Shown: positions 4,501 to 42,200 of the stretch, one piece after another
Layout: the number at the start of each line of letters is the position of its first letter
How positions within the stretch are numbered: position 1 is the stretch's first letter
Source: a virus
Taxonomy: Duplodnaviria; Caudoviricetes
Strand: one strand, 5' to 3'
Virus record (IMG/VR): IMGVR_UViG_3300025011_000016
Length of the DNA stretch: 64,000 nt
The notes under the pieces: generated by a model
Databases searched by the model: none
The model's input: only the letters and a program-made list of their open reading frames with translations
What the model was told of the DNA's origin: nothing
Position numbers and translations under genes: made by a program

Positions 4501-5552
4501 AACTATAAGTATTATAGTGGCCAGAATAATTAACTGGGTATAGTAATAAAAATAAGGATTGGATAATCCGCAGCCAAGATTCTTATATAAGAATAAGGTT
4601 CAACGACTATCGAAAGCTTTTAATTAAGTTAGTAGAGTAAGCTCACAAGTCAATAATGGTGAGTTAAAACAGAAAGCTCCTAGAAATAGGATAAAGATAT
4701 AGTCTGCTATCTCAAGGAAACTTGAGGAGTTCATAATGGAACTGCATAAATTGACGATTTATGTGAACAAAAAAGGATACGAATTGGAGATTACTTATAT
4801 AGTTTCCCTGCATAGTAATATGCAGTTTAACAACTCTTTTAATTGACGGGAAACTCCTTAGTGCTTTATAATATAAAGATTGGACAATCCGCAGCCAAGC
4901 CTCTTTATGAGAGAAAGGTTCAACGACTAGAGCATTGCTCATAGATTTACAAGTTAATGGTAAGTCGAAATGGAGAGCTCTATTAATAAACTTTATTAAT
5001 AGATGAAGATATAGTCTGCACCTTAAAGAAATTTAAGGACAATCTTTTGAATTGTAATACATGTTACGAATGTATTTAACATATTGGCAGGAAAATATTA
5101 ACAGTATGATAGGTGTCGATCCAGACATCATAGCTAAACTACATTTATTCTATAGGTCTTCAGTTGTTGGAAGAAGAAACTTAGGTGAAACTTTGGCAAC
5201 TAGACTTAAGTTATTAAATGATTTTAAGTATTCTGCGGAATTCAAAAATAGAAATGTTGAAATTTTACAGGCATATTTAAAAGCTATGGGCGTAAAGATT
5301 GTATTTGAAAATGAGAATATGTATATTGAAATCTATACTGATCAGTTAGAAGAATATTCATCTGAGGGTAGGATATATATATGTACTAAACGTGAGTTTG
5401 AAGCCGTTCAGAGAGAAGCAGAAGTTCGCAGAGAGTTCCGTGAGGATAAGTGCTTAGTGGGAACTCATGCTGAAGTTGAAGCTATTATTCAAGCTCGTAT
5501 CAGCGATCTAAACAAACGAGATACTCATTATGTAATTGACATAAATTTATAA
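1528..5552 (+). CDS. rpoB: phage multisubunit RNA polymerase beta subunit, C-terminal half; 7 exons, about 755 aa after splicing (probably the non-virion enzyme)
   Basis: Exons 1528-2700, 2966-3054, 3329-3345, 3610-4067, 4369-4419, 4777-4791, 5088-5552 total 2268 nt, in frame. Joining restores GQKITGRYG|NKG, FNSL|GVINRL|N, SARSTG and TP|IRIGD|QE, matching beta motifs GDKxxGRHGNKG, NPLGVPSRMN, HARSTG and RFGEME. Confidence 0.9.
2701..2965 (+). ncRNA. group I intron, ORF-less (beta-C intron 1)
   Basis: 5' exon TACGGT|, IGS ATTGCTG. Core AATTGTCGGG / ATTCGCAGCCAAG / GTTCAACGACTA / AAGATATAGTCT. Ends ...AATACTTG. Confidence 0.9.
3055..3328 (+). ncRNA. group I intron, ORF-less (beta-C intron 2)
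   Basis: CTCCCT|AAAA pairs with TTTTGGGG (U-G at the splice site). Full P/Q/R/S. Ends ...ACACAACG. Confidence 0.9.
3346..3609 (+). ncRNA. group I intron, ORF-less, apparently lacking P9 (beta-C intron 3)
   Basis: ATCGCT| pairs with IGS GGCGAT. Full P/Q/R/S. Only about 10 nt (AAAACATTTG) separate S from the inferred terminal G. Confidence 0.75.
4068..4368 (+). ncRNA. group I intron, ORF-less (beta-C intron 4)
   Basis: TTCCT|AT pairs with ATGGGA. Full core. Ends ...AAGTATCG. Confidence 0.9.
4420..4776 (+). ncRNA. group I intron, ORF-less (beta-C intron 5)
   Basis: GCCT|C pairs with GGGGC. Full core with a longer P5 extension. Ends ...AAAAAAGG. Confidence 0.85.
4792..5087 (+). ncRNA. group I intron, ORF-less (beta-C intron 6)
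   Basis: GGAGAT|T pairs with AGTTTCC. Full core. The 3' site is G5087 (gives RIGDQE) or, less likely, G5090. Confidence 0.8.
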
Positions 5553-5582
5553 GGTGTGTTTATCACACCTTATTCTTTTTTT
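5550..5582 (+). terminator. intrinsic terminator after the beta-C gene
   Basis: AAGGTGTG-TTTAT-CACACCTT followed by a T tract. Confidence 0.75.
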
Positions 5583-5693
5583 ATTTCCGTATATATAGGA
5601 TTTATAAGTATATATTATAATATTAATAAACCTAAGAGTGTAAGTTAAGTTATACATATAAAGAGATATTTAGAAGGAGAGGAGAAATTTACT

Positions 5694-6518
5694 ATGATCC
5701 TTAAGAAAAATCTATTACCTATTATTAATACAACTGGAATTGCAAAGGTTATTGTGGTTGCTACTCAAAAAGGTGGATCTGCTAAGACAACATCTACATG
5801 TAATCTAGCTGTTGCTATGGCGGAACGAACAGGTAAACGAGTTGCCATAATTGATTTCGATCCACAAGGTCATGTTAGTACAACTTTTGGATATGATAAG
5901 ACAGCATATAAATCTACAATATATGATGTCCTTATTGGAGATCAACCATTAAGTTCAATCCGAGTAAAAACCAAATATGGAGTAGACATATATCCATCTA
6001 ATAGGGAACTTGCCAATATTGAACATGAAATCATCTTAAACAGAATTATGTTTCCAAGAGACAAGTTTGTGCTTAGAAATGTTATTGATGATATAAAACA
6101 TAGATATGATTATATCTTCATTGATACACCACCGAGTTTAAGTTTGATAACATTAAATGCTCTAGTGGCGGCAGATGAAATTCTTATTCCTGTCCAAATG
6201 GAACCATTGGGTGCTGACGGTCTAGTTGAATTGTTAGAAACTATAAGTTCAATAGTTAGACAATACAATCCCGATATTGTTATCAAAGGGGTTATTGGTA
6301 CTATGCTCGATAGACGAGCTAAGTCTATGGTTACTCAACTTGTCCAGGATATAAATATGTTCTGTGACAAAAATAAGATTCATATCTGTGAGACTTTCGT
6401 TAGGAGAGCGCCACGAATGTCTTATATTGGCGGTATACCTGTTATCTTAGGTGATCGTAAATGTGAAGCCGTTATGGATTATAAAAAAATATTAGAGGAG
6501 CTGTTCTGTTATGAGTAA
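5694..6518 (+). CDS. parA: ParA/Soj-family partitioning ATPase
   Basis: Deviant Walker A (KGGSAKTT), AIIDFDPQG, YIFIDTPP, ALVAADEILIPV. Confidence 0.9.
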   Translation: MILKKNLLPIINTTGIAKVIVVATQKGGSAKTTSTCNLAVAMAERTGKRVAIIDFDPQGHVSTTFGYDKTAYKSTIYDVLIGDQPLSSIRVKTKYGVDIYPSNRELANIEHEIILNRIMFPRDKFVLRNVIDDIKHRYDYIFIDTPPSLSLITLNALVAADEILIPVQMEPLGADGLVELLETISSIVRQYNPDIVIKGVIGTMLDRRAKSMVTQLVQDINMFCDKNKIHICETFVRRAPRMSYIGGIPVILGDRKCEAVMDYKKILEELFCYE

Positions 6519-7092
6519 GAAAGAAAAAATGCAACGTAGTACGTTAACACATTCACTTGAGCCGGTTGAATCACAAGGCTTTGATGACGAAGATTCTATT
6601 AGAAATGAGGAGGAAACTGCAATGAACAAAATTACCGAGGGAGAACAATCTAAACCGGATGGGAATATTGAAAATTTAATCGGGAGTATCAACAAAGAAG
6701 AAATCACTAGTGATAGTCAAATAAATGAAGTTTCAGGCACTACGGATGATAATGATCAACGTGTCCGTGTTCAATTACCCGAAAACGCGCTATATGATCA
6801 CAATGCAAAACAAGTGGTTGCCTTTGATTGTAGAGTTGGCGTTATATTGAATGGTGTGGAATTCAATCCAGAACAAATTGTTCAGAGAATATGGGATAGT
6901 ATCGAACGAAAAAGACTTGAGGGAATTAACGAGCCGCCCCGTATCATTCAATGGAAAAATAAACGTGAAGTCGAAAAGCCTAAACTAATAATTATTCCGG
7001 ACGTTCCTAAACAGGTATCAAAACCTGTAGTTACTCATAAGCCGGGTGCAGCTATATCAGCAATTGGAAGACAATTCGGAATGATGATTTAG
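6511..7092 (+). CDS. hypothetical protein translationally coupled to ParA
   Basis: 8-nt overlap with the parA stop. Acidic low-complexity N-half. No ParB motif recognised. Confidence 0.75.
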   Translation: MSKKEKMQRSTLTHSLEPVESQGFDDEDSIRNEEETAMNKITEGEQSKPDGNIENLIGSINKEEITSDSQINEVSGTTDDNDQRVRVQLPENALYDHNAKQVVAFDCRVGVILNGVEFNPEQIVQRIWDSIERKRLEGINEPPRIIQWKNKREVEKPKLIIIPDVPKQVSKPVVTHKPGAAISAIGRQFGMMI

Positions 7093-7100
7093 CAAATTAA

Positions 7101-7130
7101 TAGGAGGATTTTACAGATCCTTCTTTTTTT
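7101..7130 (+). terminator. intrinsic terminator after the parA operon
   Basis: GGAGGAT...ATCCTTC followed by a T tract. Confidence 0.7.
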
Positions 7131-7186
7131 TCTCTTAATATCAAATTTAAATATATATTATATAGTTGGATTAAAAAATATATGGG

Positions 7187-10100
7187 GTGAAAGATATGGA
7201 TAAGCAAAATATAATATCACAATTAAGTGATATTCATCAAAGGTTATTAGAAAAAGAAGATTTTGTTGATACTATACAGAGACTAGAATTAATGAAGATC
7301 AATAGACTTATCAATTATCTTTTATATGCAATTACTGAATATGATCCAGATGACAAATTAATACTTCAATTATTAATAAGGATATTGCAAAATATCTTTA
7401 ATAATAGTAGTGAAATATCTCCTGTGACCGATGAGGATTATGATAAATTATATGAGTTAAACAGACAATTTAATAATGAAGAAATTGTTGGATCGTCTTT
7501 TAATAAATCCAATAAGATAATTTCAAGTCATAAATATCCTGATTTGAGAGGAACTCTAGATAAGGTCCATTTCATTAGAATTAAAGATAAGGGTAAAGAC
7601 AAACGAAGATCTATAGAAGATTTTATTAATACTGTAGAAAATAAAATAGGCAGATCTTTAACTAAGGATGAATCATTCGCCTATCTATTTCCTAAATGGG
7701 ATGGTATATCATGTATATTCGAATGTGATGAAAATGGTAATACCGATAAGGCATTATCTAGAGGTGATACTGATATAAATGAAGCGGTCGACTGGACTAA
7801 ATTGTTTAAAGGATCTAATTTCAAGTATGTGTTCGGTAATGATATAAATAGATTATTTGGTTTAAAAACAGAGATTGTAATGAGTCGTTCAAATTATAAA
7901 TTAATATGTGAAAAAGAAGGAGATCTTAAAAGTCCAAGGAGTGCCGTATCGTCTATATTAACTTCATTAACTGGTGACACATCGAATTTACCATATCTAA
8001 CTATAATACCTTTACAGACTCAGGAGTTTGAAACTAAATCTATATATACTCCAACTATAGTATATGATGAGTTTCCATACAGTGGAGGATATTTAAACAA
8101 TTTAGATGAGATCGAATTAAGAATGTTGGAGTTAAGAGAACGTATTTATACTGAAATGGATATAGATACAGATGGTGTGGTTTTTCGTTTAGCTGATCCA
8201 TATATACAAAAACTATTGGGTCGGGAAGATAAGATAAATAAATATGAGTTTGCATATAAATTCCCTCCAGAACAAAAGAAAACTATAATTAAAAATGTTA
8301 ATTTCTCAGTTGGTCTTTTAGGTTCAGTGCGACCAGTAGCAGTAATAAAACCTGTTACAATAAAAGGTAATACTATAACCAATATATCATTGGGTTCTAT
8401 AGATAGATTTGAAGAATTGGATTTAAGATTAGGTGATGAAGTTATAATAAAATATGATGTTATACCATACCTATCAATAGATTCAACATGTAGAAAAGGA
8501 GATGGGACTAAGTTTACAACTCCAACAAAATGTATATATTGTAAGGAAGAATTAGTTAAAGATCCCATATTGAAATGTATTAACGAAAAATGTAATTGTC
8601 GAATTATAGGTAAGATTCTAAACTATACTAGTAAGATGAGTATTTCAAATATGGATGTTGGAACAGTAACCACTTTATTTGAAAATAAGTTATTACGATC
8701 TATTGGTGATCTATATAAACTCAAAGATCATAAATCTGATATAGTTTCATTAAGTGGTTTTGGTGAAAAATCCTTTAATAATATTATTAAAGGTATTGAT
8801 TCAAGACGAGATGTTTATGATTATGAGTTATTGGGTTCATTGGGTATTACAGATATAGGTAGGAAAATGTTTAAGCGAATTTTAAATATATATTATATTG
8901 ATGAACTTATAGATTCAAGTACATGAGTCTCATTGCATAGTGATATGTAATAGTAATTACTTTAATTGCGGGGATCTCCTTAGAACTTAAAACACTCTAA
9001 AGTAATAATGTTTAAGATTGGACAATCCGCAGCCAAGATTCTTAATAAAGAATAAGGTTCAACGACTATCCCAGTGGATGTGAAATTCATCATTAGGAGT
9101 AGGGCTCAAGTGAGTTGGGTGAAATCCCATTAAATCGAAATGAGTAACCCCATTATAAACCATTATAATGGGTGAAGATATAGTCTGTGCTTTAAGGAAA
9201 CTTAAAGATATAACTTAATCGTAAGTCCTAAAAATTTCATTTATATATTATTACTATGATACTAACAAATAATATAAGAAAGGAGGTGAATTAAATTGAT
9301 TAAAACTTTTAAAACAAGAATACGACCGACGAAAGAACAAGAAGTATATTTAAACAAATGCTTTGGATACAGAAGGTTTATATATAATAATGCTTTAGAA
9401 TACTTTAATACGATCTTAGAATTCAATGGTAATAATCTGGATAAAACATTAAAGAAGTTCTTTAATAAGTTTGATTATATCACTAATATATATTCTAAGA
9501 AAGAAAAAGAACCTGAACTGGAATGGACTAGGGAATATAATAAAAACATAAAGGATCAGGTATCTAGTGATTTTAATATAGCTGTTAATAGATTCTTTAA
9601 CGATATTAAAAATAAGAAGCGATGTAAACTTCATTTTAAAAGAAAGATCCATGGAAATGGGTCTTTTAGAATATACAATAAAAATAAAGGTAATGTTAAA
9701 ATTCTTGATAAAAACATATTCTCTTTTATTATTAATAGAGAATATGGTCATATGTCATTAAAAACATATGAAGATATAAGCTTTTTATATCATCATGATA
9801 TAAAAACTATGTCTATTCGTATGAAGAATTTTAAATATTATGTTTCATTCACCTATGAATTGGACATTCCAAAGCATGATCATGAGAAAGACATCATAGG
9901 TATAGACTTAGGGATACATAATCCAGTAGTTTGTTTTGATGGAAAAGATGTCATAGCTCCTAAATTTCCGAAAGGAATTATTAAGAGACTAGAGAAGAAA
10001 GTCGATAAGTTTTCAACGATAGTTTCTAAGAAGAAATATGATAAACGTAATCCATCAAAGAACTATATAAAAGCGAGAACCAAGCTTAATGATATTTATA

Positions 10101-10952
10101 TTAAAATAACAAATATCAGAATGGATTATATCCAGAAGGTATCTACATTTTTAGCTAAAACTTATAAAAACGTTATAGTTGATGAATTTAGTTTTAAGGA
10201 TGTATTAACAGAGTCTGATGGTATTGAGCGTATAAATAGAGGTATACACAGAGTTGGTGCCTTTACATTTACCACAGTGTTAAAATATAAATGCCACTTT
10301 TATGGTAGTGAATATATTTTAGCATTACCTAACAGTACGAACACATGCTCTGTTTGTAATCATAAAGTTAAAACTAAAATGAAGTTATCTCAAAGAGTCT
10401 TTAATTGCCCACAATGTGGACATATAGATGATAGAGATAACAATGCGGCTATTAATATCTATAATACATTTAAACGATCTTTATTAACTAACGTAAATAA
10501 AGATTTCGCCGTTGGTCGGACGGTTCAAAGAACCTAAACGGTTAAGTTATTATGGTATCTAACGAATACCATTAACACGACAGTTATGCCTAAAGAATAA
10601 GATGGGAGGGCTGTTATTAATCCGTGGGATTAAAGAAATAACAGCCGTTAAAATTATTGAGGGCATAAAGTCGAATAAAAAACTTATTGATTTATTACGA
10701 TCCGAGATTAATTTAAGGAGGGATGTAAGACGATATACAATTAAAGTATGTTTTACTAAAGTTAGAGATAAAGATTTTGAGAAATTTCTTGAAAGTAAGA
10801 ATGTATTGGTTCTTGAAAAATATAATAAGGAGGTTGATGTGTTAATCATACCTTATAAAGATATTGATTCAGTCAAAGTTACTACTGCGAAGAAAGATGG
10901 TAAGGATATCGTAACCATCGATGAAGCTTATAAGATGTTTGGTTATAAGTAG
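7187..10952 (+). CDS. ligA: NAD-dependent DNA ligase, 2 exons (about 698 aa)
   Basis: KWDG adenylation motif, SRGD, DGVV, AYKFPP, a Cys4 zinc finger and HhH repeats in exon 1 (7187-8914). Exon 2 (10584-10952) continues ELID|LCLKNK... into a BRCT-like C-terminus. Confidence 0.92.
9242..9251 (+). promoter_or_regulatory. early-type promoter motif inside the ligA intron, upstream of tnpB
   Basis: TATATATTAT lies downstream of the ribozyme core, 45 nt before the tnpB start. Confidence 0.55.
9296..10537 (+). CDS. tnpB: TnpB RNA-guided nuclease (IS200/IS605/IS1341-type)
   Basis: N-terminal HTH (RIRPTKEQ...CFGYRRFIYN), RuvC-I GIDLG, RuvC-II VDE, CxxC-CxxC zinc finger, RuvC-III DRDNNAAINI. AAGGAGGT RBS with TTG start. 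Confidence 0.93.
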   Translation: MIKTFKTRIRPTKEQEVYLNKCFGYRRFIYNNALEYFNTILEFNGNNLDKTLKKFFNKFDYITNIYSKKEKEPELEWTREYNKNIKDQVSSDFNIAVNRFFNDIKNKKRCKLHFKRKIHGNGSFRIYNKNKGNVKILDKNIFSFIINREYGHMSLKTYEDISFLYHHDIKTMSIRMKNFKYYVSFTYELDIPKHDHEKDIIGIDLGIHNPVVCFDGKDVIAPKFPKGIIKRLEKKVDKFSTIVSKKKYDKRNPSKNYIKARTKLNDIYIKITNIRMDYIQKVSTFLAKTYKNVIVDEFSFKDVLTESDGIERINRGIHRVGAFTFTTVLKYKCHFYGSEYILALPNSTNTCSVCNHKVKTKMKLSQRVFNCPQCGHIDDRDNNAAINIYNTFKRSLLTNVNKDFAVGRTVQRT

Positions 10953-11027
10953 CATTAATAAGAAATTATTTGCTACCTAACATATTAGTAAGGAAAAAAT
11001 AAAAAGAAGAAATGGGAGGGTTTAAAC

Positions 11028-11393
11028 ATGTCTAATTCAAACGAACAAGACAATTCACGCCTAATCGAAATCCGGGAAAACGTAAAGGAAATCAGCAAAA
11101 TTGCGGATCGGGCCGCCAAGTACCTTGATGAGGAAAACCGTATTACGATTACTCACTCACTGGCGATTCCGACGATCGTGTACGCATTCATGCGAGAAGC
11201 GATCAACTTCCTTACTGAAAATAAGGTGGTTGGTTCAGATATTGAAATTAATTTAATGCAGCTTTTGGATCTTGGTATTTCATACCGCGAAAACGACGAA
11301 GCCGAGAAAGAGGGTAATTTTACTCCTTATGCTCGACCGGGACAGGAATTTAAACTCCTCGTTAAGAGCGATGAAGATACTGAAGAGGCCTAA
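11028..11393 (+). CDS. hypothetical protein, possibly distantly HU/IHF-like
   Basis: GGGAGG RBS, own promoter motif and terminator, GC-richer codon usage. C-terminal YARPGQEFKLLVK resembles HU FKPGKELK. Confidence 0.7.
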   Translation: MSNSNEQDNSRLIEIRENVKEISKIADRAAKYLDEENRITITHSLAIPTIVYAFMREAINFLTENKVVGSDIEINLMQLLDLGISYRENDEAEKEGNFTPYARPGQEFKLLVKSDEDTEEA

Positions 11394-11403
11394 AACTGGC
11401 AAC

Positions 11404-11444
11404 GACATAGACAATGAGTTATTAACTAACTCATTGTCTATGTC
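11404..11444 (+). terminator. long perfect inverted repeat / terminator
   Basis: GACATAGACAATGAGTTA / TAACTCATTGTCTATGTC. Confidence 0.65.
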
Positions 11445-11525
11445 AATTTAATGATACAATTTTTTTATTAATTAAGAGATGTTTTGTAATAGTTTAAACA
11501 TTATAGAGAGTTGGGGGAGTAATTC

Positions 11526-14500
11526 TTGAAGGACTTCATAAAGGATTATAACAACACCAATGAAGAAAATATCAATTTTGATCTAATGACACGATCACAT
11601 GATGCTGATTTAACAGAGTATGTTGTTAATACCTGTAAATCATTAGAAGTTCTTAAATATATTAAATTCATTGGTTATGAATATATAACTGATGAAACGA
11701 AAATAGATATTAATTACTATATGAGTACGAGGAAGAAAAGTAAGAAGAAAAATGAAACAAAGTATATGTACCTGCAAGATAGTCGATATGGTGAAATGCA
11801 TTTAAAGTTTCATTTAAAATGTAAAGATCGATCATTAACTTTTATCAAGAAGATATTATTACCAGTGGCTGATGATAATGATTATTATTTAGTTAAAGGT
11901 AAAAGACATTCATTATTATATCAACTAGTTGATAGTTCAACTTATACAACTAGACAGAATTTAACATTAAAATCATTAAGACCTATTACGATGAAACGAA
12001 CTGAAAGAATATATTCAGATACAGATGGTACTAAACATTCAGCTCCTTCATATGCAATTTATATCTTCAAGAAAGAAGTAGATATATTATTATTCTATTT
12101 TGCAAAGATAGGTGTGTCAAGAACTTTAGAATATTTTTCAGTAAATCATATAATGAAGTTTAAATCAGAAATTGAAGATACTATCAATAATATATATTTC
12201 TCAATTAATAGTAAATTACATGTAGAGATCAATAGACATTTCTTTGATAAATATCCATATGTTAAGAGTATAGTATTTATGATATTGAATATTTGCACTA
12301 ATAGATTAACTGTTGAAGATCTAGAAAATAAATCTTTCTGGATTGAAAAGATAGGCTCTATGAATGCGACTAATGCATATAACTATCTAGAAAAAGGTAC
12401 TAATACTTTAGTATTCTTTGATAGGTTATTAGATGAAACAACTAAGAATATTTTAAAAATTCATGATGAGAATAATAAAAATATATACTCTGTAATTCGT
12501 TGGATTAAATTATAGTCCCATTATAGAGTGATCTATATTGAAAACTTCTTTAATTGTCGGGAAACTCCTTAGTGCTTTATAAAGATAAAGATTGGACAAT
12601 CCGCAGCCAAGATTCTTATAATAGGAATAAGGTTCAACGACTAATTTAGAGCTCAAGTGAGTGAGTTTAATATAACTCTTAAATCGAAATAAGAAGCATC
12701 TTATATAAGATGATGATATAGTCTGTGCTTTATTGAAAGATAAAGAAAGATAACATCTTTACATTATCTAACGAATAATGTTAACACTCAGGTTTCAAAA
12801 CTTTAATGAATTACGTAAGAAAGATAATCTTGATCTTGCCAATAAACGTTTACGATGTAATGAACTCATCGCATCATTATTAACTAAAGCTTTTAGTACT
12901 AGAGTTGATAGAATTATTGGTTTTGGTAATAAAGTTACGTTAGATAACATTAAGGAAATATTCAAATTTCCAGGTGATGTAATAATGCAGCAATTGCATA
13001 AGTCAGGATTATTTAGATATGATATTTTATTGTCCATTATAGTAGTGATATTATAATGAATTTTCTTTAATTGGCGGGGACATTCTTAGGGCTTAAACTA
13101 CTAAAATATATCAGTGATGATATACTAACTAAGAGTAACTAACTTAGTATGAGTAATAATGTTTAAGATTGGACAATCCGCAGCTAAGCATCTTTATATA
13201 AACCCCCATAATTATTAATACGTTATACAATATAAAGGAGAGGTGTGACTGTAATGAAAGGACGATTGGGTGAAAATAAATGTCCCTCTTGTTACGAATA
13301 ATTATTCAATTAATTCTGAGGGATTTATTAGGAATGATAAATTCAATAGAATTTTGACCCGATGGAAAAATAATAGAGGTTATGAAGCTGTGCAATTATC
13401 ATGTATTGATGGTATAACAAGAAGTTTTACAATTCATAGATTGATGGCTCATCATTTTATACCAGGGTTCGACATTTCAGATAGATCCATTGTTGTTCAT
13501 CATAAGGACAGTGTAAATAAAACTAACTCATTAGATCTTCTAACCGTTTGTACTCAAAAAGAAAATATTAAGTATTCTATCGAAGAAGGTAATAAACCAA
13601 ATGGTGAAAAACATCCGATGGGTAAATTTCCAGATGAGCTGGCTAATAAAATAGTTGCCTTATTACAAAAAGAAAAAAGTACCGATGAAATATTTAATAT
13701 ATTAGATTTAGAAGTTAAGAAGAATATGCGTATATTTATAAATGATCTTAGAGCTAAACGAACCCGATTGTATTTAACTGAAGGTTTGGATTTAAAGAAG
13801 CATGTGCAGGAAAAACATGATATAAACTTGGTGAAGAGGGTGATTCGTTATATGAAGATAGGTATGACGGTAGATAATATAATCAATATGATTGGAAAAG
13901 GAAATGCTGGTAGGCATGAAAGGGAGAGATACTCCTCGTTAATACAAAGGATACATGACGGGAAAGCGTGGGGAAGATTATATAAAGATGATAGTTCAAC
14001 GACTAATGATGACTACATGGTTATTAAAATTAAAATGTAGTTATAGATTTACAAGCTAATGGTAAATCGAAATGGGGAACACCTCATATTAAGTTGATAT
14101 GAGATGAAGATATAGTCTGGTATCCTAATATTAAATTAGGGAAGTTCATAAGAGAACTGGGTTTCGTTGCGGAAAACCTGAACCTGGGGATAAAATTAAC
14201 GATCTCGACTTCTTTAGTAAGTTCAAATATACCCTAAATTTTGGGGCGTTATAGAGTGATCTATATAGATAAAATTCTTTAATTGTCGGGGAACTCCTTA
14301 GAACTTCTTAATTGAAGATTGGACAATCCGCAGCCAAGATTGTTGATAAACAATAAGGTTCAACGACTAGAGTATAACTCGTAGATATATAAGTTAATGA
14401 TATATCGAAATAAGTTTAATCTTCTTATAGAAGATTGTGATATAGTCTTGTATCCTATATAACATTAGGGAAGTTCATTTGAGAACTGTATAGAGTTACG

Positions 14501-15746
14501 ATCTATATGAAAGTATACGTAAAGGACCAAATTCCTTGGGTTTTAATAAATAGGCCCATGATCTTTTAATTGCGGGAAACTCCTTAGTACTTCTATATGA
14601 AGATTGGACAATCCGCAGCCAAAATTGTTGATAAACAATAAGGTTCAACGACTAGAGTATAACTCGTAGATATATAAGTTAATGATATATCGAAATATAG
14701 AACTATCGAAAGATAAAGAGATAGTCTGGTATCCTAATTAACATTAGGGAAGTTCACAGGAGAACTGCATTATTTTACGAATAATGTGAACTCATCGAAT
14801 AAAAATGATAATAATATCTCAGTTAAATATCGCGGCATACACCCGAGTTATCTGGCCCGCGTAGATATTAACGTTTGCGGTGAACGTAGAAATATAATTG
14901 CCGCCTTTTCTTTAATTGACGGGAACTCCCTTATAGCTTAAACTACTAATAGTAACAAGTTTAAGATTGGACAATCCGCAGCCAAGATTGTTATAAAACA
15001 ATAAGGTTCAACGACTAGAGTGATAACTCGTAGATTCGAAAGAATTGAAATGGGAAAACGATAGAGTTATTCTATTGAAGATATAGTCTAATATCCTAAT
15101 ATAAGTTAGGGAAGTTCATAAGAGAACTGCATAGATTGATAAACTGTGTGAATAAATGAATTCAGACCCTAGAAATAAATTTGGGGCAATATCGAGTGAT
15201 CGTTATTGTTAAACTACCTTGACTGCGGGAAACTTCTTAGAGCTTTAAATTGATAAAGATTGAACAATCCGCACCCGATATTCTATATAATAGAATAAAG
15301 TTCAACGACTAGAGCATATTTGCTCGTAGATATAAAGTTATATCGAAATTAGTAGAATCTCTTAGGAGATTATGAGATAGTCTGGTATCCTATATAACTA
15401 TAGGGAAGTTCATAAGAGAACTGTACTATTTAACGAATAGTATGAACACACGGGAACTAGTGGTATTATAACACCATTCTGTAAAACTAGTGGATTATTC
15501 TTCGATGGTGCATTTGAACCAGAAAGTTTTAAATATGATTTTGATAAGGAGATAACTGACTTTAGAAAATCAACTAGTAATAACATAATTGTTGATACTC
15601 ACTATGATAATATATCTGAGTATTTTGAAGGTAGAGAACGATTTAAAGAAATGAATAGTCGAATCAAAATATCAGAGATTGAACGAACTGATAATAGTAA
15701 GTATTATATTAAAATTAAGCTTGCTAGTAATACTGATGATATATAA
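11526..15746 (+). CDS. rpoB: phage multisubunit RNA polymerase beta subunit, N-terminal half; 7 exons, about 556 aa after splicing
   Basis: Exons 11526-12505, 12792-13023, 14189-14235, 14520-14541, 14798-14881, 15159-15170, 15453-15746 total 1671 nt, in frame. YYLVKGKRHSLLYQL corresponds to FIINGxERVxVSQL. Joining gives KYTL|KGPNSLG and RGIHPSYLARVDINVCG|NSDP|GTSG (beta GPGG and [23 protein letters not shown]). Confidence 0.88.
12506..12791 (+). ncRNA. group I intron, ORF-less (beta-N intron 1); closest 'empty' relative of the two TnpB introns
   Basis: GGAT|TA pairs with TAGTCC. Full core. The 3' domain GTCTGTGCTTTA...CTAACGA...TAACACTCAG parallels that of the TnpB introns. Confidence 0.9.
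13024..14188 (+). mobile_element. group I intron carrying an HNH endonuclease in P6 (beta-N intron 2)
   Basis: TGAT|A pairs with TTGTC. Q at ~13176 and R at ~13994 are separated by the ORF, with arms CATCTTTATA / TATAAAGATG. Ends ...AACCTGGG. Confidence 0.85.
13270..14040 (+). CDS. intron-encoded HNH homing endonuclease
   Basis: GYEAVQL, IHRLMAHHF, VHHKD..NK.N..L, QKEN. Its last codons overlap the intron R element. Confidence 0.8.
   Translation: MKINVPLVTNNYSINSEGFIRNDKFNRILTRWKNNRGYEAVQLSCIDGITRSFTIHRLMAHHFIPGFDISDRSIVVHHKDSVNKTNSLDLLTVCTQKENIKYSIEEGNKPNGEKHPMGKFPDELANKIVALLQKEKSTDEIFNILDLEVKKNMRIFINDLRAKRTRLYLTEGLDLKKHVQEKHDINLVKRVIRYMKIGMTVDNIINMIGKGNAGRHERERYSSLIQRIHDGKAWGRLYKDDSSTTNDDYMVIKIKM
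14236..14519 (+). ncRNA. group I intron, ORF-less (beta-N intron 3)
   Basis: CCCT|AAA pairs with TTTGGGG. Full core. Ends ...AGTATACG. Confidence 0.9.
14542..14797 (+). ncRNA. group I intron, ORF-less (beta-N intron 4)
   Basis: GGGT|TT pairs with AGGCCC. Full core. Ends ...CTCATCG. Confidence 0.88.
14882..15158 (+). ncRNA. group I intron, ORF-less (beta-N intron 5)
   Basis: GCGGT|GA pairs with TTGCCGC. Full core. Ends ...AATAAATG. Confidence 0.9.
15171..15452 (+). ncRNA. group I intron, ORF-less (beta-N intron 6)
   Basis: CCCT|AG pairs with TTGGGG. Variant core ACTGCGGG / ATCCGCACCCG / GTTCAACGACTA / GAGATAGTCT. Ends ...ACACACG. Confidence 0.88.
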
Positions 15747-15821
15747 GGAAACTAAAATTTCCATTATATTCCTGCTCTAATAAAATAAAGATAAGGGCTT
15801 AAAAACCCTTATTTTTTTAAA

Positions 15822-15855
15822 TATATATTATATAATGAATCAAGTAAATATATAA
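15822..15855 (+). repeat. 34-bp exact direct repeat, copy 1 (promoter and leader cassette)
   Basis: TATATATTATATAATGAATCAAGTAAATATATAA, identical at 16615-16648. Confidence 0.9.
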
Positions 15856-15870
15856 AGGGGGAATTACATA

Positions 15871-16539
15871 ATGACTGACAAAGAAAAAATTAAACAACAT
15901 CCTGCGTATATCCAGTACATTAAAAACCCTAGTAAAAAACTTCAAAAAATTGCACTTAAGAAAAGTGGAGGTAGTATATTCAAGTATATTAAAAAACCAA
16001 GTAAGAAAATTCAATTTCTTGCAGTTTCATTATTTGATCGTAATATTAAATACATCAAAAATCCGCGTGAAGGATTGCAATTAGCGGCAGTTCAAAATGA
16101 TGGATCGAATATTCAATATATTAAAAATCCGAGTACTATGATTCAACATAAGGCGGTATCTACAAATGGTGACGCTATTAAATATATCAAAAATCCGAGT
16201 GAGGAAATACAATTAGCTGCTATATATGAAAACCCATGGAGTATTAAATATATCAATAACCCCAATAAACGTGTGCAGTTAGCTGCTGTGACGTTAGTTG
16301 GTCATGTAATTCAATACATTAATACAGACCTTGACAAAGACGTGCAGTTAGCTGCAATAAAAGAGAATAAATATGTAAGTAAATATGAACATGAAAACAT
16401 TACCATCGACCCATATGATACGGATGATGGATGTTCTGTGTTGCCATATCGATATATGCGTCGTGATATATTACCATTCGCGTATATTCAAAACCCAGAT
16501 CCTGATGTAATTGACTATATGGTGCGGAATATATTATAA
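15871..16539 (+). CDS. tandem-repeat protein (DUF4116-like)
   Basis: About 22-aa repeats IQYIKNPSxxxQLAAV. Confidence 0.75.
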   Translation: MTDKEKIKQHPAYIQYIKNPSKKLQKIALKKSGGSIFKYIKKPSKKIQFLAVSLFDRNIKYIKNPREGLQLAAVQNDGSNIQYIKNPSTMIQHKAVSTNGDAIKYIKNPSEEIQLAAIYENPWSIKYINNPNKRVQLAAVTLVGHVIQYINTDLDKDVQLAAIKENKYVSKYEHENITIDPYDTDDGCSVLPYRYMRRDILPFAYIQNPDPDVIDYMVRNIL

Positions 16540-24989: not shown

Positions 24990-27900
24990 ATGGATTTCAT
25001 GAAAGGTATTAATAAAGAGAATGTCATGTTAATTAATATAATATATCATAATAAGAGAAAAGAGAATAATTATAATGATTACTTAGATATTATCACTAAA
25101 GATTTAACCACAGGTGAAAAAATACTTACAACTATCGAGAATCCTGAAATGGATATATATTTTACAAAAGAGGAGCATAGAAATTATGACTATAATAAGA
25201 ACTTTATGGAAATTGATAAGACTGATAGACATAGATTTAAATATAAAGATCTAACTAGATCCATAGCTAAAATGGCTGGGCCTAGTTATGAGAACTTCAT
25301 TAAACAATCTATAGAAACACAAAATTATGCTAGAATAAATAATATCCATAAATATAAATATGTATTTGGATCTGATGTTGATATTGAAAATTGGTATAGA
25401 ATTCAATGGTTATTAAATTATGATAATAATAAACCTAAATCCGTAACTAAGCTATTTCTCGACATAGAAGTCGACGGTCGGGATGTACCTGGATTCCCCA
25501 GAGATGGTGAAGTGCCAATTAATGCTGTAACGATAGTAGATGAATTTAGTAATCAATCATTTACATTCTTATTGGATAATCCATTAAACCCTCAAATAGA
25601 AGATTTTAAAAATGATGTGGAATCTTTTGTTGAAGAACTACATAATGATTTTGATGAATCATATGGGGAATTAAAATATAACTTATTTATTTATGATGAT
25701 GAAGTTCAAATGTTAATAGATGTATTTAAATTGATTAACACTCTGAACCGAGATTTCCTATTAGTGTGGAATATGAGTAAAATGATGCTCCTTATAAAGG
25801 CGACTTTATAAGAAAATTTCTTTAACTGCTGGAAACTCCTTAGAGCCTTTATTATCAGAGTATAATAATATAAAGGATTGGGCAATCAGCAATCAAGTTC
25901 AATAACAAACTAAGTTTTATTACATTTATTAGAGGAGGGTAAAACATGTATATAGTAATACGCAAAGATAAAGAAGTATTTAAATTATCAACTTATCCTG
26001 GGATTAAAAAAGATATGTATTCTATTAGTAACTACGGGTCTATACGTAATAATGTGACAAACGAGATATTTTTTCCAACATCGAGAAACTCAGCAGGTTA
26101 TGTACACACTTCTTTATGTACAGAATCATTTAAAGTTTACACTAGTGTTTTGGTATCACGTTTAGTTGCTTGGGAATTTTGTGATGGTTATGATAAGGAA
26201 CTAAATAGGGTGGAAGTCAATCATAAAGATATCAACAGGGCTAATAATTATTATGAGAATTTAGAATGGGTGACTCGGGGAGAAAATACTAAATTTGCCT
26301 ACGTGCATGGCAATCGTAAGGTGATAGTGCCAGATTCTAGGGGACCAAGAGCAAAGATACGCGGATCATTAAATCCCAAGAATGTTTTCAGTGAAGAGTT
26401 TGTACATGAACTCTGTCAGTTATTCACGGACGGTAAGAGCACTAAAGAGATATTAAAAATATTCAATACGAGTAAAAAATTAAATACACAACTCTATTCA
26501 TTACTCATGACTTTGAAACATAGAAAAGGATGGGGACATATTACGGAAAAATATGTATATTGATATTTGTTATTGAAAAGATTCAACGACTAGAGTGAGA
26601 ACTCGTAGACCCTTTTCATGGGGTGGACATAATAAGTCCTTCGCGAAATGGGAAACATCTCCGATGTGGAGATGAAGATATAGTCTGATATCTTAGGGAA
26701 ATCCTAAGGAAGTTCATAAGAGAACTGCGTAGTATAAAAAACTATGTGAACTGTTTGTTCGATGTGCCGTACATGATCGCACGTATGTTAGAATTAGGAA
26801 TGAATCCTGTTGAAGTGATGTGTCATAAAGATTTTAAAATACAAGAAGCTTTTTTCAAAAAAGATCTTCGAAATTTTATGATAGCTAATAAAGGAGATTA
26901 TTTTAAGATATCATCTTATACTGTATATTTAGACCAAATGATAGTATATGCCAGTTTAAGAAAAGGAGGTAGTCAGTTACGATCAAATGCTCTTAGCTAC
27001 ATTGCTCAAGTTGAAATTGGTGATGAAAAATTAGACTATTCTGAAGATGCTAATATCAAAACTTTACCATATGTTAATTACAAGAAATTCGTTAAATACA
27101 ATATCAAAGACGTTTTACTACAACTTGGAATTGAGAGAAAAACTCATGATATTGATAATGTTTATTTAAGATCGTATACAAATGTAACAGCTTATTCAAA
27201 AGTATTTAGACAAACGGTATTTTATAGTGCCGGTGATTCTTTAATTGACGGGAAACTCCTTATAGCTTCTTAATGAAGATTGGACAATCCGCAGCCAAGA
27301 TTCTTATAATAAGAATAAGGTTCAACGACTAGAGTATAACTCGTAGGTTTAATAACTGAAATGGGAAACCGATAGAATTTATTCTATTGAAGATATAGTC
27401 TATTATCCTAAAGTAATTTAGGGAAGTTCATAAGAGAACTACATTATCTTACAAATAATGTGAATTATAGGTTCTTAAAAAACAGAGCATTTTTAGAGTT
27501 TTATAAACAAGGTTTGATTATTGGTAATAATACCAATATTGATTATGGATTACCTCCTCAGATAGCTAAAGAAAAAGATGAGGATGATGAGAAATTTGCA
27601 GGTGCATTAGTTGGTGATCCTGAATTGAATAGTAAGACTGGTATAATGATGTTAGGAACTCCAAGTAAATACATCTATGATAACGTTGTAGATATGGATA
27701 GCTTTGTCCCATTATGTAGTAATATGTAATGAAAACTTCTTTAATTGACGGGGAACTCCTTAGAACTTCTTAATCGAAGATTGGACAATCCGCAGCCAAG
27801 ATTCTTATTATATAGAATAAGGCTCAACGACTATCCCATTGGTATTGAAATATACAACAGGAGTAGGGCTCAAATGAGTGGGTGAAATTCCCTTAAATCG

Positions 27901-28600
27901 AAATAAGAAGCATCTTATATAAGATGATGATATAGTCTGAACTCATATGAGAATATGAGAGAGTTTACTTTATATTATCTAATAAATAATATTAACAAAT
28001 TGATGGGTAAATATTGCTCATATAAAACTTCTTTAATTGACGGGAAACTCCTTAGAACTTCTTAACTGAAGATTGGACAATCCGCAGCCAAGATTCTTAC
28101 ATAAGAATAAGGTTCAACGACTAGAGTGTGACTCGTAGATATAAAGTTATATCGAAATGAAAAGCTCTCTTAATAAGAGATGAAGATATAGTCTAATATC
28201 CTATATAATTATAGGGAAGTTCATAAGAGAACTGTATAGAGTTACGATCTATATGAATACCATGGCGTTTTATCCTAATATGATTATGGCTTTTAATATA
28301 TCACCAAATTGTATAATCGGTAAATTACTCTTAGACACAACCATAGAAGACCTATATAATATCAAAGATATTGAAGCCGATATATATGATTGTGGGCGAG
28401 ACTTCGTAGATAACATGTTAATTAACAATCCTGGTAACATGGGCAGTAAATGGTTTAATCTTCCGAAAATAGAAGAACTTAATGAGTTAATACGAGAGAA
28501 GTTCTTAATGAATAAGAAGACTAAACTAATTATACCTGACTCATATAAAGATAAGTTATTTATTGAGAATCTAGTAATAAATATTAAAGGAGTGAAATGA
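24990..28600 (+). CDS. polB: split family-B DNA polymerase, N-terminal chain (3'-5' exonuclease plus motif A); 5 exons, about 606 aa
   Basis: Exons 24990-25778, 26758-27218, 27471-27699, 28003-28008, 28265-28600 total 1821 nt, in frame. ExoI LDIEV, ExoII WNMS|FDVPY, ExoIII YNIKD, motif A VVDMD|MG|AFYPN. Confidence 0.88.
25779..26757 (+). mobile_element. group I intron carrying an HNH endonuclease in P6 (pol intron 1)
   Basis: GAGT|A pairs with TGCTC. The P4 pairing is compensated (TGCTGG/TCAGCA instead of TGCGGG/TCCGCA). R at ~26582, S at ~26675. Ends ...CTGTTTG. Confidence 0.88.
25946..26563 (+). CDS. intron-encoded HNH homing endonuclease (NUMOD4-HNH-like)
   Basis: YSISNYGSI, GYVHTSL, SRLVAWEF, VNHKDINRANNYYENLEWVT..EN. 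Confidence 0.88.
   Translation: MYIVIRKDKEVFKLSTYPGIKKDMYSISNYGSIRNNVTNEIFFPTSRNSAGYVHTSLCTESFKVYTSVLVSRLVAWEFCDGYDKELNRVEVNHKDINRANNYYENLEWVTRGENTKFAYVHGNRKVIVPDSRGPRAKIRGSLNPKNVFSEEFVHELCQLFTDGKSTKEILKIFNTSKKLNTQLYSLLMTLKHRKGWGHITEKYVY
27219..27470 (+). ncRNA. group I intron, ORF-less (pol intron 2)
   Basis: CGGT|ATT pairs with AGTGCCG. Full core. Ends ...ATTATAG. The join gives RQTV|FLKNR. Confidence 0.9.
27700..28002 (+). ncRNA. group I intron, ORF-less (pol intron 3)
   Basis: GGAT|AG pairs with TTGTCC. Full core. Ends ...CAAATTG. Confidence 0.85.
28009..28264 (+). ncRNA. group I intron, ORF-less (pol intron 4)
   Basis: TGGGT|AA pairs with TTGCTCA. Full core. Ends ...TACCATG. Confidence 0.85.
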
Positions 28601-39295: not shown

Positions 39296-42200
39296 TTATG
39301 AATTGAGTTCATCGAAGAAATCCAATGGTATACCTGTTTCTGATGACATATCATCATCAAAATTTTCAACATAATTTTTTGGTGGAATTAACATATCACT
39401 ATGCTTCATTTCCCTACGAGCTTTTTGGATTTCTTCAATTAATTTTATATTATAATCGTCTTGAGTTTTAACACCAACATCTTTAAAATATCCCTTGCTA
39501 TCATCCGAGAGTTCTTCATATAGTTCATCATATGTTAACCCTTTATTACGTTTTTCTTCGTCGGGTATATCTCCCCTGACAAAACCGAATCTATGAAGAT
39601 TATTTCCATGATAGAATACATATAGAACTATTAGATATGACATTATTGAATCGTCATGAAAAGAAGTCCCTGCAGCTATTTTACCAGTTTTAGTTTTAAC
39701 TAGTCGTAATAGATCATCAATAATATTACAGGTAACAAATTTATCTTTAAATTCATTCACATGTCGTTCAAGTAAACTCCTGTCGTGTTAGTAGTATTCG
39801 TTAGATACCACGATAACTTAACCGTTTAGGTTCTTTGAACCGTCCGACCAACGGCGAAATCTTTATTTACGTTAGTTAATAAAGATAGTTTAAATGTATT
39901 ATAAATATTAATAGCCGCATTGTTATCTCTATCATCTATATGTCCACATTGTGGGCAATTAAAGACTCTTTGAGATAACTTCATTTTAGTTTTAACTTTA
40001 TGATTACAAACAGAGCATGTAATGGTACTATTCGGTTCTGCTAAAATATATTCACTACCATAAAAACGACATTTATATTTTAACACCTGCGTAAACGTAA
40101 AGGCTCCAACTCTATGAATACCCCTATTAATACGCTTAATACCATCAGACTCTGTTAATAAATCTTTAAAACTAAATTCATCAACTACTACGTTTCTATA
40201 GGTCTTGGCTAAGAATGTAGATACCTTCTGAATATAATCCATTCTAATATTCACTATTTTGGCGTGAATATCATTAAGCTTGGTTCTCGCTTTTATATAG
40301 TTCTTTGATGGATTACGTTTATCATATTTCTTCTTAGAAACTATTTCCGAAAGCTTATCAGTTTTCTTCTCTAGTTTCTTAATCTTCCCTTTCGGAAATT
40401 TAGGATTTATGATATCTTTTCCATCAAAACAAACTACTGGATTATGTATCCCTAGGTCTATACCTATAGTATTTTTCTCATGGTTATGACTTGGATTATC
40501 TATTTCATATGTGAATGATACATAATATTTAAAATTCTCCATACTAATACTCATTGTTTTCATCTCATGATGATATAAGAAGCTTATATCTTCATATGTT
40601 TTTAATTCCATATGCCCATATTCTCTATTAATAATAAAAGAGAATTTATTTTTATCGAGAATCTTAACAGCAGCTTGCTTAATATATATTCTAAAAGAAC
40701 CATTTCCATGAATCTTTCTTTTGAAATGTAGTTTACATCGCTGCTTATTTTTAATATCTTTAAAGAACTTATTAACGGCTAAGTTAACATCACTAACCGT
40801 TTCATTTTTTATAGACTTATTATATTCTCCAGTCCATTCAAATCCAGGTTCCTTTTCTTTCTTAGAATATATATGAGTAATAAAATCAAATTTATCAAAG
40901 AACTTCCTTAAATCTTTATCTACAATATTACCATTAAATTCTAGGATCTTATTAAAATACTCTAAAGTATTATTATATACAAATCGTCTATAACCAAAGC
41001 ATTTGTTTAAATATGTTACTTGTTCTTTAGTTGGTCGTATTCTTGTTTTAAAAGTCTTAATCAATTTTTATTCACCTCCTTTCTTATATTATTTGTTAAA
41101 GGTATAATATAATTGTATTAGGAATGAATTAGTAAGACTTACGGTTAAGTTATTCTCTAAGTTTCCTTAAAGCACAGACTATATCTTCACCCATTATAAT
41201 AATAATTATAATGGGGCCACCCATTTCGATTTAAGGGATTCTCACCCACTCACTTGAGCCCTACTCCTTTACGGATAGTCGTTGAACCTAAATCTATAAA
41301 TAGATCATTGGCTGCAGATTGTCCAATCTTAAACATTGTTACTTTGTTGTAGTTTAAGCACTAAGGAGTTTCCCGCAATTAAAGTAGTTTCAATTACATA
41401 TTACTATGCAACGTGACTCATACATGAATCATAACTTCTCTGGACTTATCTCCGGTCCAAACACCATATAGTTTTCGTCTAGCTGATTCTAATTTTAACA
41501 TACCTTCTGAGTCAAGTTTATCATCAAGTCCGGATGAAACAAGATCTTTATCATTATCAAAGTATAAATTAGAGCGTATATCTGTTAATTTTAAAGAATC
41601 CATTATGGCTTCACCATTAAAATTACGTTCTATACATAATATAGACTTAGGGATATGATGTTTGATAAGAGTAGTTATAAATTTAATAGTCTGAACTACA
41701 CCTATATATGGTGATTTAAATTCAGCAACAGGTTTTATAGTATATGGGTCAAATACCGTAACGGCAGTATTATCTTTACCATAACCATTAGAGGTATCAA
41801 CTCCAACGAAGTATATCCTATCTTTCTTCAAGGGTTCATATATATCTAATTTAAATAGTTTATTTATAAATATTTCTTCCTTAATTGGCTTCTTCATTTC
41901 TTCAATAGTGGCCAAATCTTCTGCGGGGAAAGGAGATTCGGATGAACCCCTCATTCTTTGAAGGAAGACCTCTCTTTTAATCTTTACTGGATTATTCAGT
42001 AAGATCTGACAGATACTTTTAAACCATATTTCATCTTTACCAAGTTGTTGATATTGGTATTCAATATAGACGATTCCACTTTCAGAATTAATTGCAATAT
42101 ATTCATCTAAATCTTCTTTAGTCCAATCATAAAACTTTTCAGTCCAACGACAAGTTGTAGCGATAATCTTTAATGCGTCCTGACCTGCTGAAGTATCTAA

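Follow-up and report, generated by a model that had tools for sequence, protein, structure and literature searches.

IStrons are, to our knowledge, unique in that the bases of a ribozyme also encode a CRISPR-like guide RNA, and one layout has been described for them so far, with the insertion sequence (IS) after the intron helix P9.2. In all IStrons the IS sits downstream of P9.2, following a GAACGA-type motif (Tourasse, 2014; PMC4227781). In the validated guide RNA of the CboIStron one pseudoknot strand (PK-1) lies in an upstream loop, the other (PK-2) abuts the 3' splice site, and a terminal stem-loop is held in common with the intron (10.1101/2023.11.20.567912; PMC13521648). Here we consider a group I intron without an open reading frame (ORF) at 12506-12791 of a 64-kb stretch of an uncultured groundwater jumbo phage (IMG/VR record IMGVR_UViG_3300025011_000016; the whole stretch is called the window below). 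The phage genome is ~248 kb and is AR9/PBS1-like as judged from gene content. The window has 24 group I intron cores, the number given in the first-pass annotation of this DNA, and two of these introns carry tnpB.

The best overall explanation, to which we assign a probability of about 0.7, is that 12506-12791 is an ORF-less IA2 intron of a subfamily that follows NGAT, that the two TnpB introns are members of this subfamily with tnpB and a guide scaffold in P9.1, and that their guide RNA would run to the 3' splice site. Judged by sequence comparison, the placement of tnpB and most of the guide scaffold in the P9.1 loop is a layout unlike that of all described IStrons, a point absent from the first-pass annotation.

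An intron in the RNA polymerase gene

The locus comprises the following features.

11526..12505, + strand: exon 1 of the gene for non-virion RNA polymerase (RNAP) beta, N-terminal part (phrog_2943 'polymerase', E 5e-18; tblastn against AR9 g105, E 1e-37)
12506..12791, + strand: ORF-less group I (IA2-type) intron, the 'empty sister' of the TnpB introns (RF00028, 84.8 bits; exon join 12505/12792 in frame and colinear with AR9 gp105)
12792..13055 (3' limit approximate), + strand: exon 2 of the same RNAP beta gene (the AR9 gp105 alignment runs on past the junction; an HNH-bearing intron is next)

It is clear that 12506-12791 is an ordinary ORF-less IA2-type group I intron splitting the non-virion RNAP beta gene. 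The RF00028 covariance model is matched over its full length (1-253) at 12496-12745, well above the gathering score of 50, and the boundaries have the U.G pair in P1 and the terminal G of group I splice sites: the 5' flank is TGGAT, of which GGAU (12502-12505) is paired by the internal guide GUCC (12515-12518), and the last base is G12791. Among five members of the subfamily the guide base facing exon position -4 covaries with that exon base. Self-splicing, with exon GGAU and GUCC as P1 and G12791 as the terminal G, would restore the RNAP beta mRNA, and the spliced product aligns with AR9 gp105 by blastp at 30% identity over 413 aa (E 2e-57), ungapped where ...IYSVIRW meets MFQNFNELRKK... across the junction. 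No intron breaks the nearest RNAP beta homologues (69% amino acid identity, 556 aa). In L248, a 66% relative, the identical TGGAT site does hold an intron, in a contig that stops 44 nt inside it, and a paralogue ~85% identical to the 12506 intron follows GCGGAT in contig L001 and occurs at equal depth in the same samples. A megablast search of 8000-13500 against the phage collection returned no match.

The next RNAP beta intron occupies approximately 13056-14190 of the window and holds an HNH endonuclease gene at 13270-14040 (phrog_59, E 3e-17); downstream of it, further ORF-less introns stand in a row at 14225-15405. A single gene, RNAP beta, thus has in succession the ORF-less 12506 intron, the one with the HNH gene and several others without an ORF.

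A 3' domain shared with the TnpB introns

The 3' domain of the empty intron, and the two other ORF-less introns of the window with the same layout, are as follows.

12728..12745, + strand: P9 hairpin CTTTAT-TGAAAG-ATAAAG, at the end of the Rfam alignment, near-identical to 9190-9207 of a TnpB intron and in the same position
12746..12760, + strand: short P9.1 hairpin AAAGAT-AAC-ATCTTT, located by the colinear 3' domains, where the TnpB introns have a 13-bp stem with the cassette as its loop
12761..12781, + strand: P9.2 hairpin ACATTAT-CTAACGA-ATAATGT, with a loop identical to 10559-10565
12782..12791, + strand: 3' tail TAACACTCAG with the terminal G12791, by sequence comparison without the CGAC of the TnpB introns
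4792..5086 (3' end approximate), + strand: ORF-less intron of the same 3' layout, after GAGAT (P9.1 ACAAT/ATTGT; P9.2 loop GTTACGA; tail TAACATATTG)
27700..28002 (3' end approximate), + strand: ORF-less intron of the same 3' layout, after TGGAT (P9.2 loop CTAATAA; tail TAACAAATTG)

Two types of 3' tail follow P7 among the introns of the window. The majority type, in introns that follow CCCT, consists of P9 ATCCTA..TAGGGA, P9.1 GTTC-ATAAGA-GAAC, a P9.2 with the loop TTAACGA or similar, and then GAAYA. The second type is found in five introns (4792, 8915, 12506, 27700 and, on the minus strand, 41429), all of them after NGAT, and runs from GTCTG.. through P9 with a GAAA-like loop, a short P9.1 and P9.2 with a CTAACGA-like loop to TAACA...G; in the TnpB introns a 13-bp stem replaces the short P9.1, and P9.2 and the tail follow downstream. 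Within the window, exact ATAGTCTGTGC and CTAACGA are confined to 12506 and the two TnpB introns, and 12506 is the top-scoring of 30 ORF-less introns on both cassette flanks. Across ~40 introns the P9.2 loop keeps the consensus YTRACGA and the stems covary, which together with the colinear P9 and P9.1 provides comparative support for the extended P9 domain (P9, P9.1 and P9.2) of 12506-12791. The P9.1 position is a hairpin of 4-6 bp in all ORF-less relatives, and the empty intron ends in TCAG.

These comparisons place 12506 and the TnpB introns in one small subfamily of introns that follow NGAT, recognized by P9, P9.1, P9.2 with a YUAACGA loop and UAACA...G. They also bear out what the first-pass annotation had read from the letters: an empty intron after GAT with this series of helices and tail; the same series in the TnpB introns, with the cassette inside a P9.1 drawn out to the 13-bp stem 9210-9222/10538-10550 (pairing and colinearity both hold); introns of the same 3' type at 4792 and 27700 (the layout agrees, with looser sequence); and the positions of GTCG (10515-10518), CGAC (10578-10581) and TCAA (10525-10528). 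Its proposal that the terminal ~45 nt of the TnpB elements derive from an intron fits as well, as the last 46 nt (P9.1 3' strand, P9.2 and tail) are of intron type and colinear with the ORF-less introns, of which 12506 is the closest match.

Several further observations concern these introns. Intron 27700 ends at ~28002 and the next Rfam match begins at 27999 (27700-28216), with seemingly few exon bases between them. Contig L230 of IMG/VR has ~8 ORF-less introns of the same 3' type within ~4 kb (4600-8700), with the P9.2 loop ATAACGA and tails TAACA..CAG; a '...CAG' end was considered as a mark specific to TnpB introns and was dropped, since these ORF-less introns end likewise. Among majority introns (for example 4061-4320 and 57640-57880), P9.1 AAGTTCATAAGAGAACTG is letter-identical to that of C. 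difficile CdISt1-type IStrons (L047), and some end in GAAAGTATCGG, like the GTATCGG of CbISt3 (L018, phage c-st), yet they have no IS and follow CCCT.

The tnpB cassette lies in P9.1

Reference will be made below to the Staphylococcus jumbo phages Machias (MW349128) and LY01 (OR836606), which carry related elements. The features of the TnpB introns of the window are these.

8915..10583, + strand: TnpB intron (IStron copy 1) in the NAD-dependent DNA ligase gene (RF00028, 80.3 bits at 8905-9207; TnpB Pfam domains; ligase uninterrupted in L248 and L249)
39780..41429, - strand: second TnpB intron, ~86% identical, in the terminase region, same layout (RF00028, 83.9 bits at 41155-41437)
9210..9222, + strand: 5' strand of the extended P9.1 (inverted repeat I24; kept in all copies; positional equivalent of wholly different sequence in Machias/LY01)
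10538..10550, + strand: 3' strand of the extended P9.1, pairing with 9210-9222 and kept among copies
9296..10537, + strand: tnpB ORF, 413 aa (PF12323, PF01385, PF07282; full-length alignment to ISDra2 TnpB 8EXA/8H1J, E ~1e-22)
10470..10537, + strand: probable omegaRNA scaffold, cassette-borne part (27-29 of 30 columns invariant, the most conserved stretch of the element; fold z = -2.5; stems covary in L020)
10477-10505, + strand: hairpin within this scaffold
10509-10523, + strand: scaffold hairpin CCGT-TGGTCGG-ACGG, with loop GTCG at 10515-10518 as PK-1
10522-10534, + strand: scaffold hairpin GGTTC-AAA-GAACC, containing TCAA 10525-10528
10552..10572, + strand: P9.2 of the TnpB intron, ATGGTAT-CTAACGA-ATACCAT (one compensatory change from A-U to G-C among copies; homologous to P9.2 of the ORF-less introns)
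10573..10583, + strand: tail TAACACGACAG, with CGAC 10578-10581 as PK-2 and G10583 terminal

Both TnpB introns join a group I intron and an IS200/IS605-type ORF in a single unit with the splice sites as its ends. Conservation among copies extends exactly from the 5' splice site to ...GACAG, with unrelated sequence outside, and the 5' flanks are TAGAT, ATGAT and TTGAT with the 3' end GACAG, compared with TTGAT, ATTAT or TTTAT and TCAG in group A IStrons. The 13 bp formed by 9210-9222 and 10538-10550 comprise 12 Watson-Crick pairs and one G.U, the stem is perfect in the second copy, and it is supported by its position, by its conservation and by a counterpart in the Staphylococcus phages, TTGTATAAAATAC/GTATTTTATACAA, in the same location. 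In the tail, CAC 10576-10578 is able to pair with GUG of the joining segment J7/9 in a P9.0-like manner.

In canonical IStrons the order is different. CbISt3 of phage c-st (group B) reads P9, P9.1, P9.2, GAATAA, orfA and orfB enclosed by a 13-bp inverted repeat, and GTATCGG. Group A copies, found by scanning for GATATAGTCTGTGC and present in C. difficile, Fusobacterium, Peptacetobacter, Pectinatus and gut-virus contigs, read ...P9.2-GAACGAC-AACCTC(...tnpB...)GAGGTT-CAG, with a canonical P9.1 of GTTC..GAAC ahead of P9.2. The cassette of the window TnpB introns lies instead between P9 and P9.2, and since canonical IStrons carry the IS after P9.2, the layout seen here is a new variant.

The cassette consists of tnpB only: a tblastn search of the 64-kb window with the Y1 TnpA of a canonical copy gave nothing at E <= 1. 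An Rfam search of the whole window found group I introns only and no guide-RNA family at E <= 0.01, and the initial screen also missed the known c-st IStrons. Sliding identity over the four TnpB-intron copies was too flat to bound the guide scaffold. Relatives were sought through TnpB in viral and metagenome contigs, and that locus search yielded none.

The copies outside the window add some detail. In L001 the TnpB ends 17 codons sooner (396 compared with 413 aa) despite almost identical nucleotides (L001 10130-10330 against window 10480-10537); because the frame is shorter while the nucleotides are nearly the same, the C-terminal tail over the guide scaffold is conserved as RNA and not as protein. 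L001 and L002 share a helicase 5' exon and TnpB intron and have different 3' exons (TATAAGCATT... and ATAAGGTAGA...) after ...GACAG, which may reflect an assembly chimera or two insertion sites. The ligase is uninterrupted in related phages (L248 280-2361, L249 72-2132), and at the homologous insertion site L248 reads ..DELKE/ICQ.. where the window phage reads ..DELID/LCL..; because DELKE/ICQ is encoded there, neither the GAT nor the bulk of the expected guide match is present at that site.

A guide RNA that would end at the 3' splice site

The first-pass annotation offered two models for the 3' end of the guide RNA, and the one in which it runs to the 3' splice site, with exon 2 as the guide, is favoured. 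On this model the guide RNA would extend beyond the cassette as far as the splice site and so include the P9.1 3' strand and P9.2, and a pseudoknot of GUCG 10515-10518 with CGAC 10578-10581 would return the 3' end to the scaffold core. P9.2 (10552-10572) probably doubles as the 3'-terminal stem-loop of the omegaRNA. The guide would be exon 2 (TTATGCCTAAAG... for 8915-10583), and the nuclease would cut intron-less alleles that have NGAT. The intron fold (long-range P9.1 and P9.0 CAC) and the guide fold (pseudoknot and local hairpins) would compete for the same bases, with C10578 predicted to serve both the P9.0-like CAC/GUG pairing and the pseudoknot, which would be in keeping with the established antagonism of guide-RNA folding and splicing.

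GUCG belongs to the loop of the hairpin CCGU-UGGUCGG-ACGG, with CGAC 2 nt ahead of the terminal G. The corresponding pairing of loop and tail stays in register across five Staphylococcus phage copies, one of which has two both-sided changes (UA to GC and CG to UA), taking GGUCA/AGAC to GGGUA/AACC; for the Staphylococcus phage structure as a whole, the observed covariation is above that of all 500 shuffles. In L020, with a TnpB 38% identical, the pair is GUUG/CGAC, and the scaffold hairpins run straight into CACGACA. Both the splice-site end and the GTCG/CGAC pseudoknot proposed in the first-pass annotation are supported by the covariation seen in the related Staphylococcus jumbo phages, and the end-to-end alignment of TnpB with ISDra2 TnpB is counted on the same side.

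Phylogeny of the intron cores

Trees were built from P3-P7 (174 aligned columns), one of 35 rows comprising 29 phage introns (from the window and L001, with three TnpB cores) and six group A cores, and a wider one of 82 rows. All 29 phage introns, the three TnpB cores among them, fall together in one clade (100/100), the six group A cores make up another (100/100), and the group B CbISt3 core is more distant still. The three TnpB cores are one clade in the 82-row tree (support 98), and in the 35-row tree they share an 85/91 group, without resolution, with three ORF-less introns; 12506 groups with 27700 (support 86). Had the TnpB cores grouped with host IStrons, the earlier idea of assembly from the phage's own introns would have failed. 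They fall in the phage's own intron clade, apart from group A, and so that outcome did not occur; nor are their cores close relatives of those of described IStrons.

As to origin, we lean towards insertion of a tnpB-guide module into L9.1 of an ORF-less intron over decay of a TnpB intron. More tentatively, and at slightly less than even odds, AR9-like jumbo phages may have a third, independently assembled IStron architecture, in which a tnpB-omegaRNA module entered P9.1 of a resident intron, P9.2 and the P9.0 strand were co-opted as a 3' scaffold, the pseudoknot bridges the insert, and 12506 represents the state before capture.

Alternative explanations

A number of observations weigh against the explanation preferred here. 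The core tree lacks a sister grouping of 12506, 4792 and 27700 with the TnpB introns, although such a grouping is not rejected (approximately unbiased (AU) test, p = 0.26). As a single sequence the 12506 3' domain folds no better than shuffles (z = -1.15, an AT-rich RNA), with P9 not cleanly reproduced, and the 13-nt inverted repeat is pair I24, one of 55 inverted pairs within its 1.4 kb and unexceptional alone; because the folds are weak and the repeat is not exceptional by chance statistics, it is position and comparison that support the helices. A single sequence of a related family supplies the pseudoknot covariation, and the GUCG/CGAC of the window-phage copies is invariant. NGAT at the 5' splice site is also demanded by P1 pairing and is therefore not independent evidence of a target-adjacent motif. 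In the window GGACGGTTCAA resembles GGGAGGTTCAG, the right-end terminus of canonical group A IStrons, and in Machias a weak alignment links GTTAGTTACTGAG, just ahead of the P9.1 3' strand, to the canonical end AGTAGTTCAG, so an internal right end may have existed, at least ancestrally.

Such an internal end is the basis of the other model of the first-pass annotation, in which the cassette would be an IS200/IS605-type element nested in P9.1 with the right end GGTTCAA (10522-10528) and intron sequence AGAACCTAAACGG... as guide. TnpB would then cut cassette-less versions of the same intron, and the cassette would spread between introns rather than the intron between genes; the guide RNA would end just after GTTAGTYACTGAG in Machias/LY01, and the target in the window would be AAGAT followed by AGAACCTAAACGG... 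We regard this proposal as improbable. Besides the two likenesses to group A termini, it can draw on an NGAT that abuts the P9.1 5' strand in each of the five Staphylococcus phage copies and precedes a conserved AAAAAATTCAT, and on the fact that excision of 9210-10528 would leave AACC-TAAAC-GGTT, a plausible small P9.1 hairpin. The window copies, however, read AAGTCYT and not NGAT after the P9.1 5' strand, and local alignment of the window guide region with canonical right ends scores no better than shuffles. The proposed TCAA lies at the top of a hairpin and is TTAA in L001 and L002, where GGTTY-AAA-GAACC stays paired; L020 has another stem there, TACTAT/ATAGTA around TTTCAA, and then directly CAGCACGACA, and because a different stem is built around TTCAAA the two hairpin strands are a single unit. 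The tnpB frame runs 7 nt beyond TCAA in two copies (in L001 the stop is 51 nt earlier), the scaffold end would pair with its own guide, and the covarying partner of the pseudoknot is the terminal tail, not an internal site. The predicted guide matches TnpB introns only, which have no GAT upstream, and at up to 4 mismatches it has no ORF-less intron or other match among the sequences at hand, so that the idea of TnpB aimed at tnpB-less introns is left without a target there; a nested element with a conserved right-end site and empty targets is not what the copies present. Whole elements (intron and cassette, ~86% identical) occupy at least three different genes, which makes the whole intron the unit that moved. 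The 13-bp stem was also considered as an argument here and was dropped, since an IS always landing in the same intron could evolve such pairing.

As to origin, insertion of the module must be set against two other histories. In one, 12506 and its ORF-less relatives (4792, 27700 and L001 14184) would be TnpB introns from which the cassette was deleted between the P9.1 arms, as in BcISt1. This is unlikely but a serious contender: ORF-less IStrons exist and cassette excision has been achieved in experiments (PMC4227781); with NGAT before it and TCAG at its end, 12506 resembles group A IStrons; no other ORF-less intron has a 3' domain nearer to that of the TnpB introns; and the AU result accommodates a single clade of introns with the second type of 3' tail. 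An ORF-less derivative of an IStron should retain arms or scaffold, and no ORF-less copy has a remnant of the 13-bp arms or the scaffold; their P9.1 hairpins are short (4-6 bp) and of unrelated sequence, AAAGAT/ATCTTT of 12506 having nothing in common with ATAACTTAATCGT/ACGGTTAAGTTAT. The P9, P9.1, P9.2 and tail series is colinear with the majority introns and with canonical modules, so that a small P9.1 looks ancestral, and the ~8 ORF-less introns of this 3' type in L230 belong to an unrelated viral contig; it is the missing remnants, the generality of the small P9.1 and the L230 introns that incline us to capture. The ORF-less copies are also not nested in the clade of TnpB introns. The other history, recombination between intron copies in one genome, is quite doubtful; under it the likeness of the 3' domains would say nothing about where the cassette entered. 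The signals of core and 3' domain do disagree, the 27700 core being as close to the TnpB introns as the 12506 core and the nearest introns in the tree being ORF-less ones with the majority-type tail (57353, L001 2225 and L001 12165), and more than 24 similar introns in one genome offer ample opportunity. Against such shuffling, the cassette has the same position in Staphylococcus phages whose introns are very divergent, and this recurrence marks the position as a stable feature of a lineage and not a local mosaic. In four groundwater DNA runs examined over 2500-16500, none of the joints listed skips 8915-10583, 9223-10537 or 12506-12791; the records are short unitigs that break at intron repeats, with joints that are chimeric between paralogous introns, and they say nothing about alleles without the intron or cassette.

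Significance and comparison with known systems

With the nuclease module in P9.1, these introns show a second layout, in which a true intron helix would lie within the guide scaffold, and this suggests that the partnership of intron and TnpB arose or was rebuilt more than once. If the guide RNA does end at the splice site, the TnpB scaffold can tolerate ~35-70 nt of foreign structure between core and guide with the pseudoknot kept. The ORF-less sister introns offer natural 'minus-cassette' controls for work on how splicing and guide RNA conflict, and cultured Staphylococcus jumbo phages with the same layout open the question to bench work.

Other positions of the cassette were encountered. A second family of TnpB introns, in L243, L245, L246 (LY01) and the 212-kb metagenome contig L021, has a larger and GC-richer intron with the cassette directly after P9, a closing stem of ~24 bp and ~10 nt left (TATATAGCAG or TATATGACAG). 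In L159, L174 and L236 (IMG/VR, 195-356 kb) the order is P9, P9.1, a stem CTGCAAA../..TTTGCA around a promoter-led tnpB, and CCAG, the cassette replacing P9.2. Four positions were thus seen overall: after P9.2, in P9.2, in P9.1 and directly after P9. L007 (c-st) is a plain IS200/IS605 element and not an IStron.

The closest counterparts are the TnpB introns of Machias and LY01, annotated in the records only as 'transposase' or 'hypothetical protein'. They have the same layout (P9, 13-bp stem, tnpB and scaffold, P9.2, tail ...AACAAGACAG), an NGAT 5' flank, several copies per genome and AR9-like phages as hosts of the element; their TnpB is 30-37% identical, the scaffold has two extra stem-loops, and P9.2 has an outer stem and lacks the CUAACGA loop. 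There are 2-3 copies in each genome (L237-L241), in gyrB and other genes, and Machias also has at least 10 very small group I introns (160-190 nt) below the Rfam cut-off.

Group A IStrons (CdISt1/CdiIStron; PMC4227781; 10.1101/2023.11.20.567912) resemble the window elements in the fusion of an IA2 intron with an IS200/IS605-type tnpB, in insertion after a TTGAT-like motif (here TAGAT, ATGAT or TTGAT), in the final letters CAG (of GACAG here and TCAG there), in splice sites as element ends, in a 3'-end guide scaffold, probable here, whose pseudoknot, putative in the window, touches the last intron bases, and in GATATAGTCTGTGC at P7/J7-9. They differ in that ~9 nt of intron (GAGGTTCAG) lie 3' of the IS, whereas here there are 46 nt including P9.2; in the window, moreover, no tnpA or remnant of it was detected, TnpB is 26-28% identical to theirs, and the cores form a separate clade. 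In the CboIStron/CbISt3 system (IS607-type, group B), where the omegaRNA has been mapped with stem-loops (SL) SL1-SL5 and PK-1/PK-2, SL5 and PK-2 serve splicing and guide alike in mutually exclusive folds (PMC13521648), roles to which P9.2 and CGAC would correspond here. Only the last 18 nt of the CboIStron are needed for splicing and its SL5 is derived from the IS, whereas the shared helix here is the true intron helix P9.2, found also in ORF-less introns; CboIStron/CbISt3 further have a serine TnpA, a TGGG target and a CGG end, in contrast to NGAT and CAG.

The ORF-less BcISt1 of emetic Bacillus cereus (PMC4227781) is, like 12506, an IStron-type intron with a short hairpin in the place of the IS. 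Its ORF-less copies keep the inverted-repeat arms and are deletion derivatives at orthologous loci, whereas 12506 has no arm or scaffold remnant and is not nested among TnpB copies. Finally, phage introns of the HNH type (AR9 g190, with HNH in the virion RNAP gene, and 13056-14190 of the window) likewise carry a nuclease gene as the stem-closed loop of a peripheral helix, in an essential gene and with ORF-less sisters in the genome. The nuclease of the TnpB introns is predicted to be RNA-guided, and with the splice site as the obligatory end of its guide scaffold, the TnpB cargo would not be structurally independent of the ribozyme that carries it.

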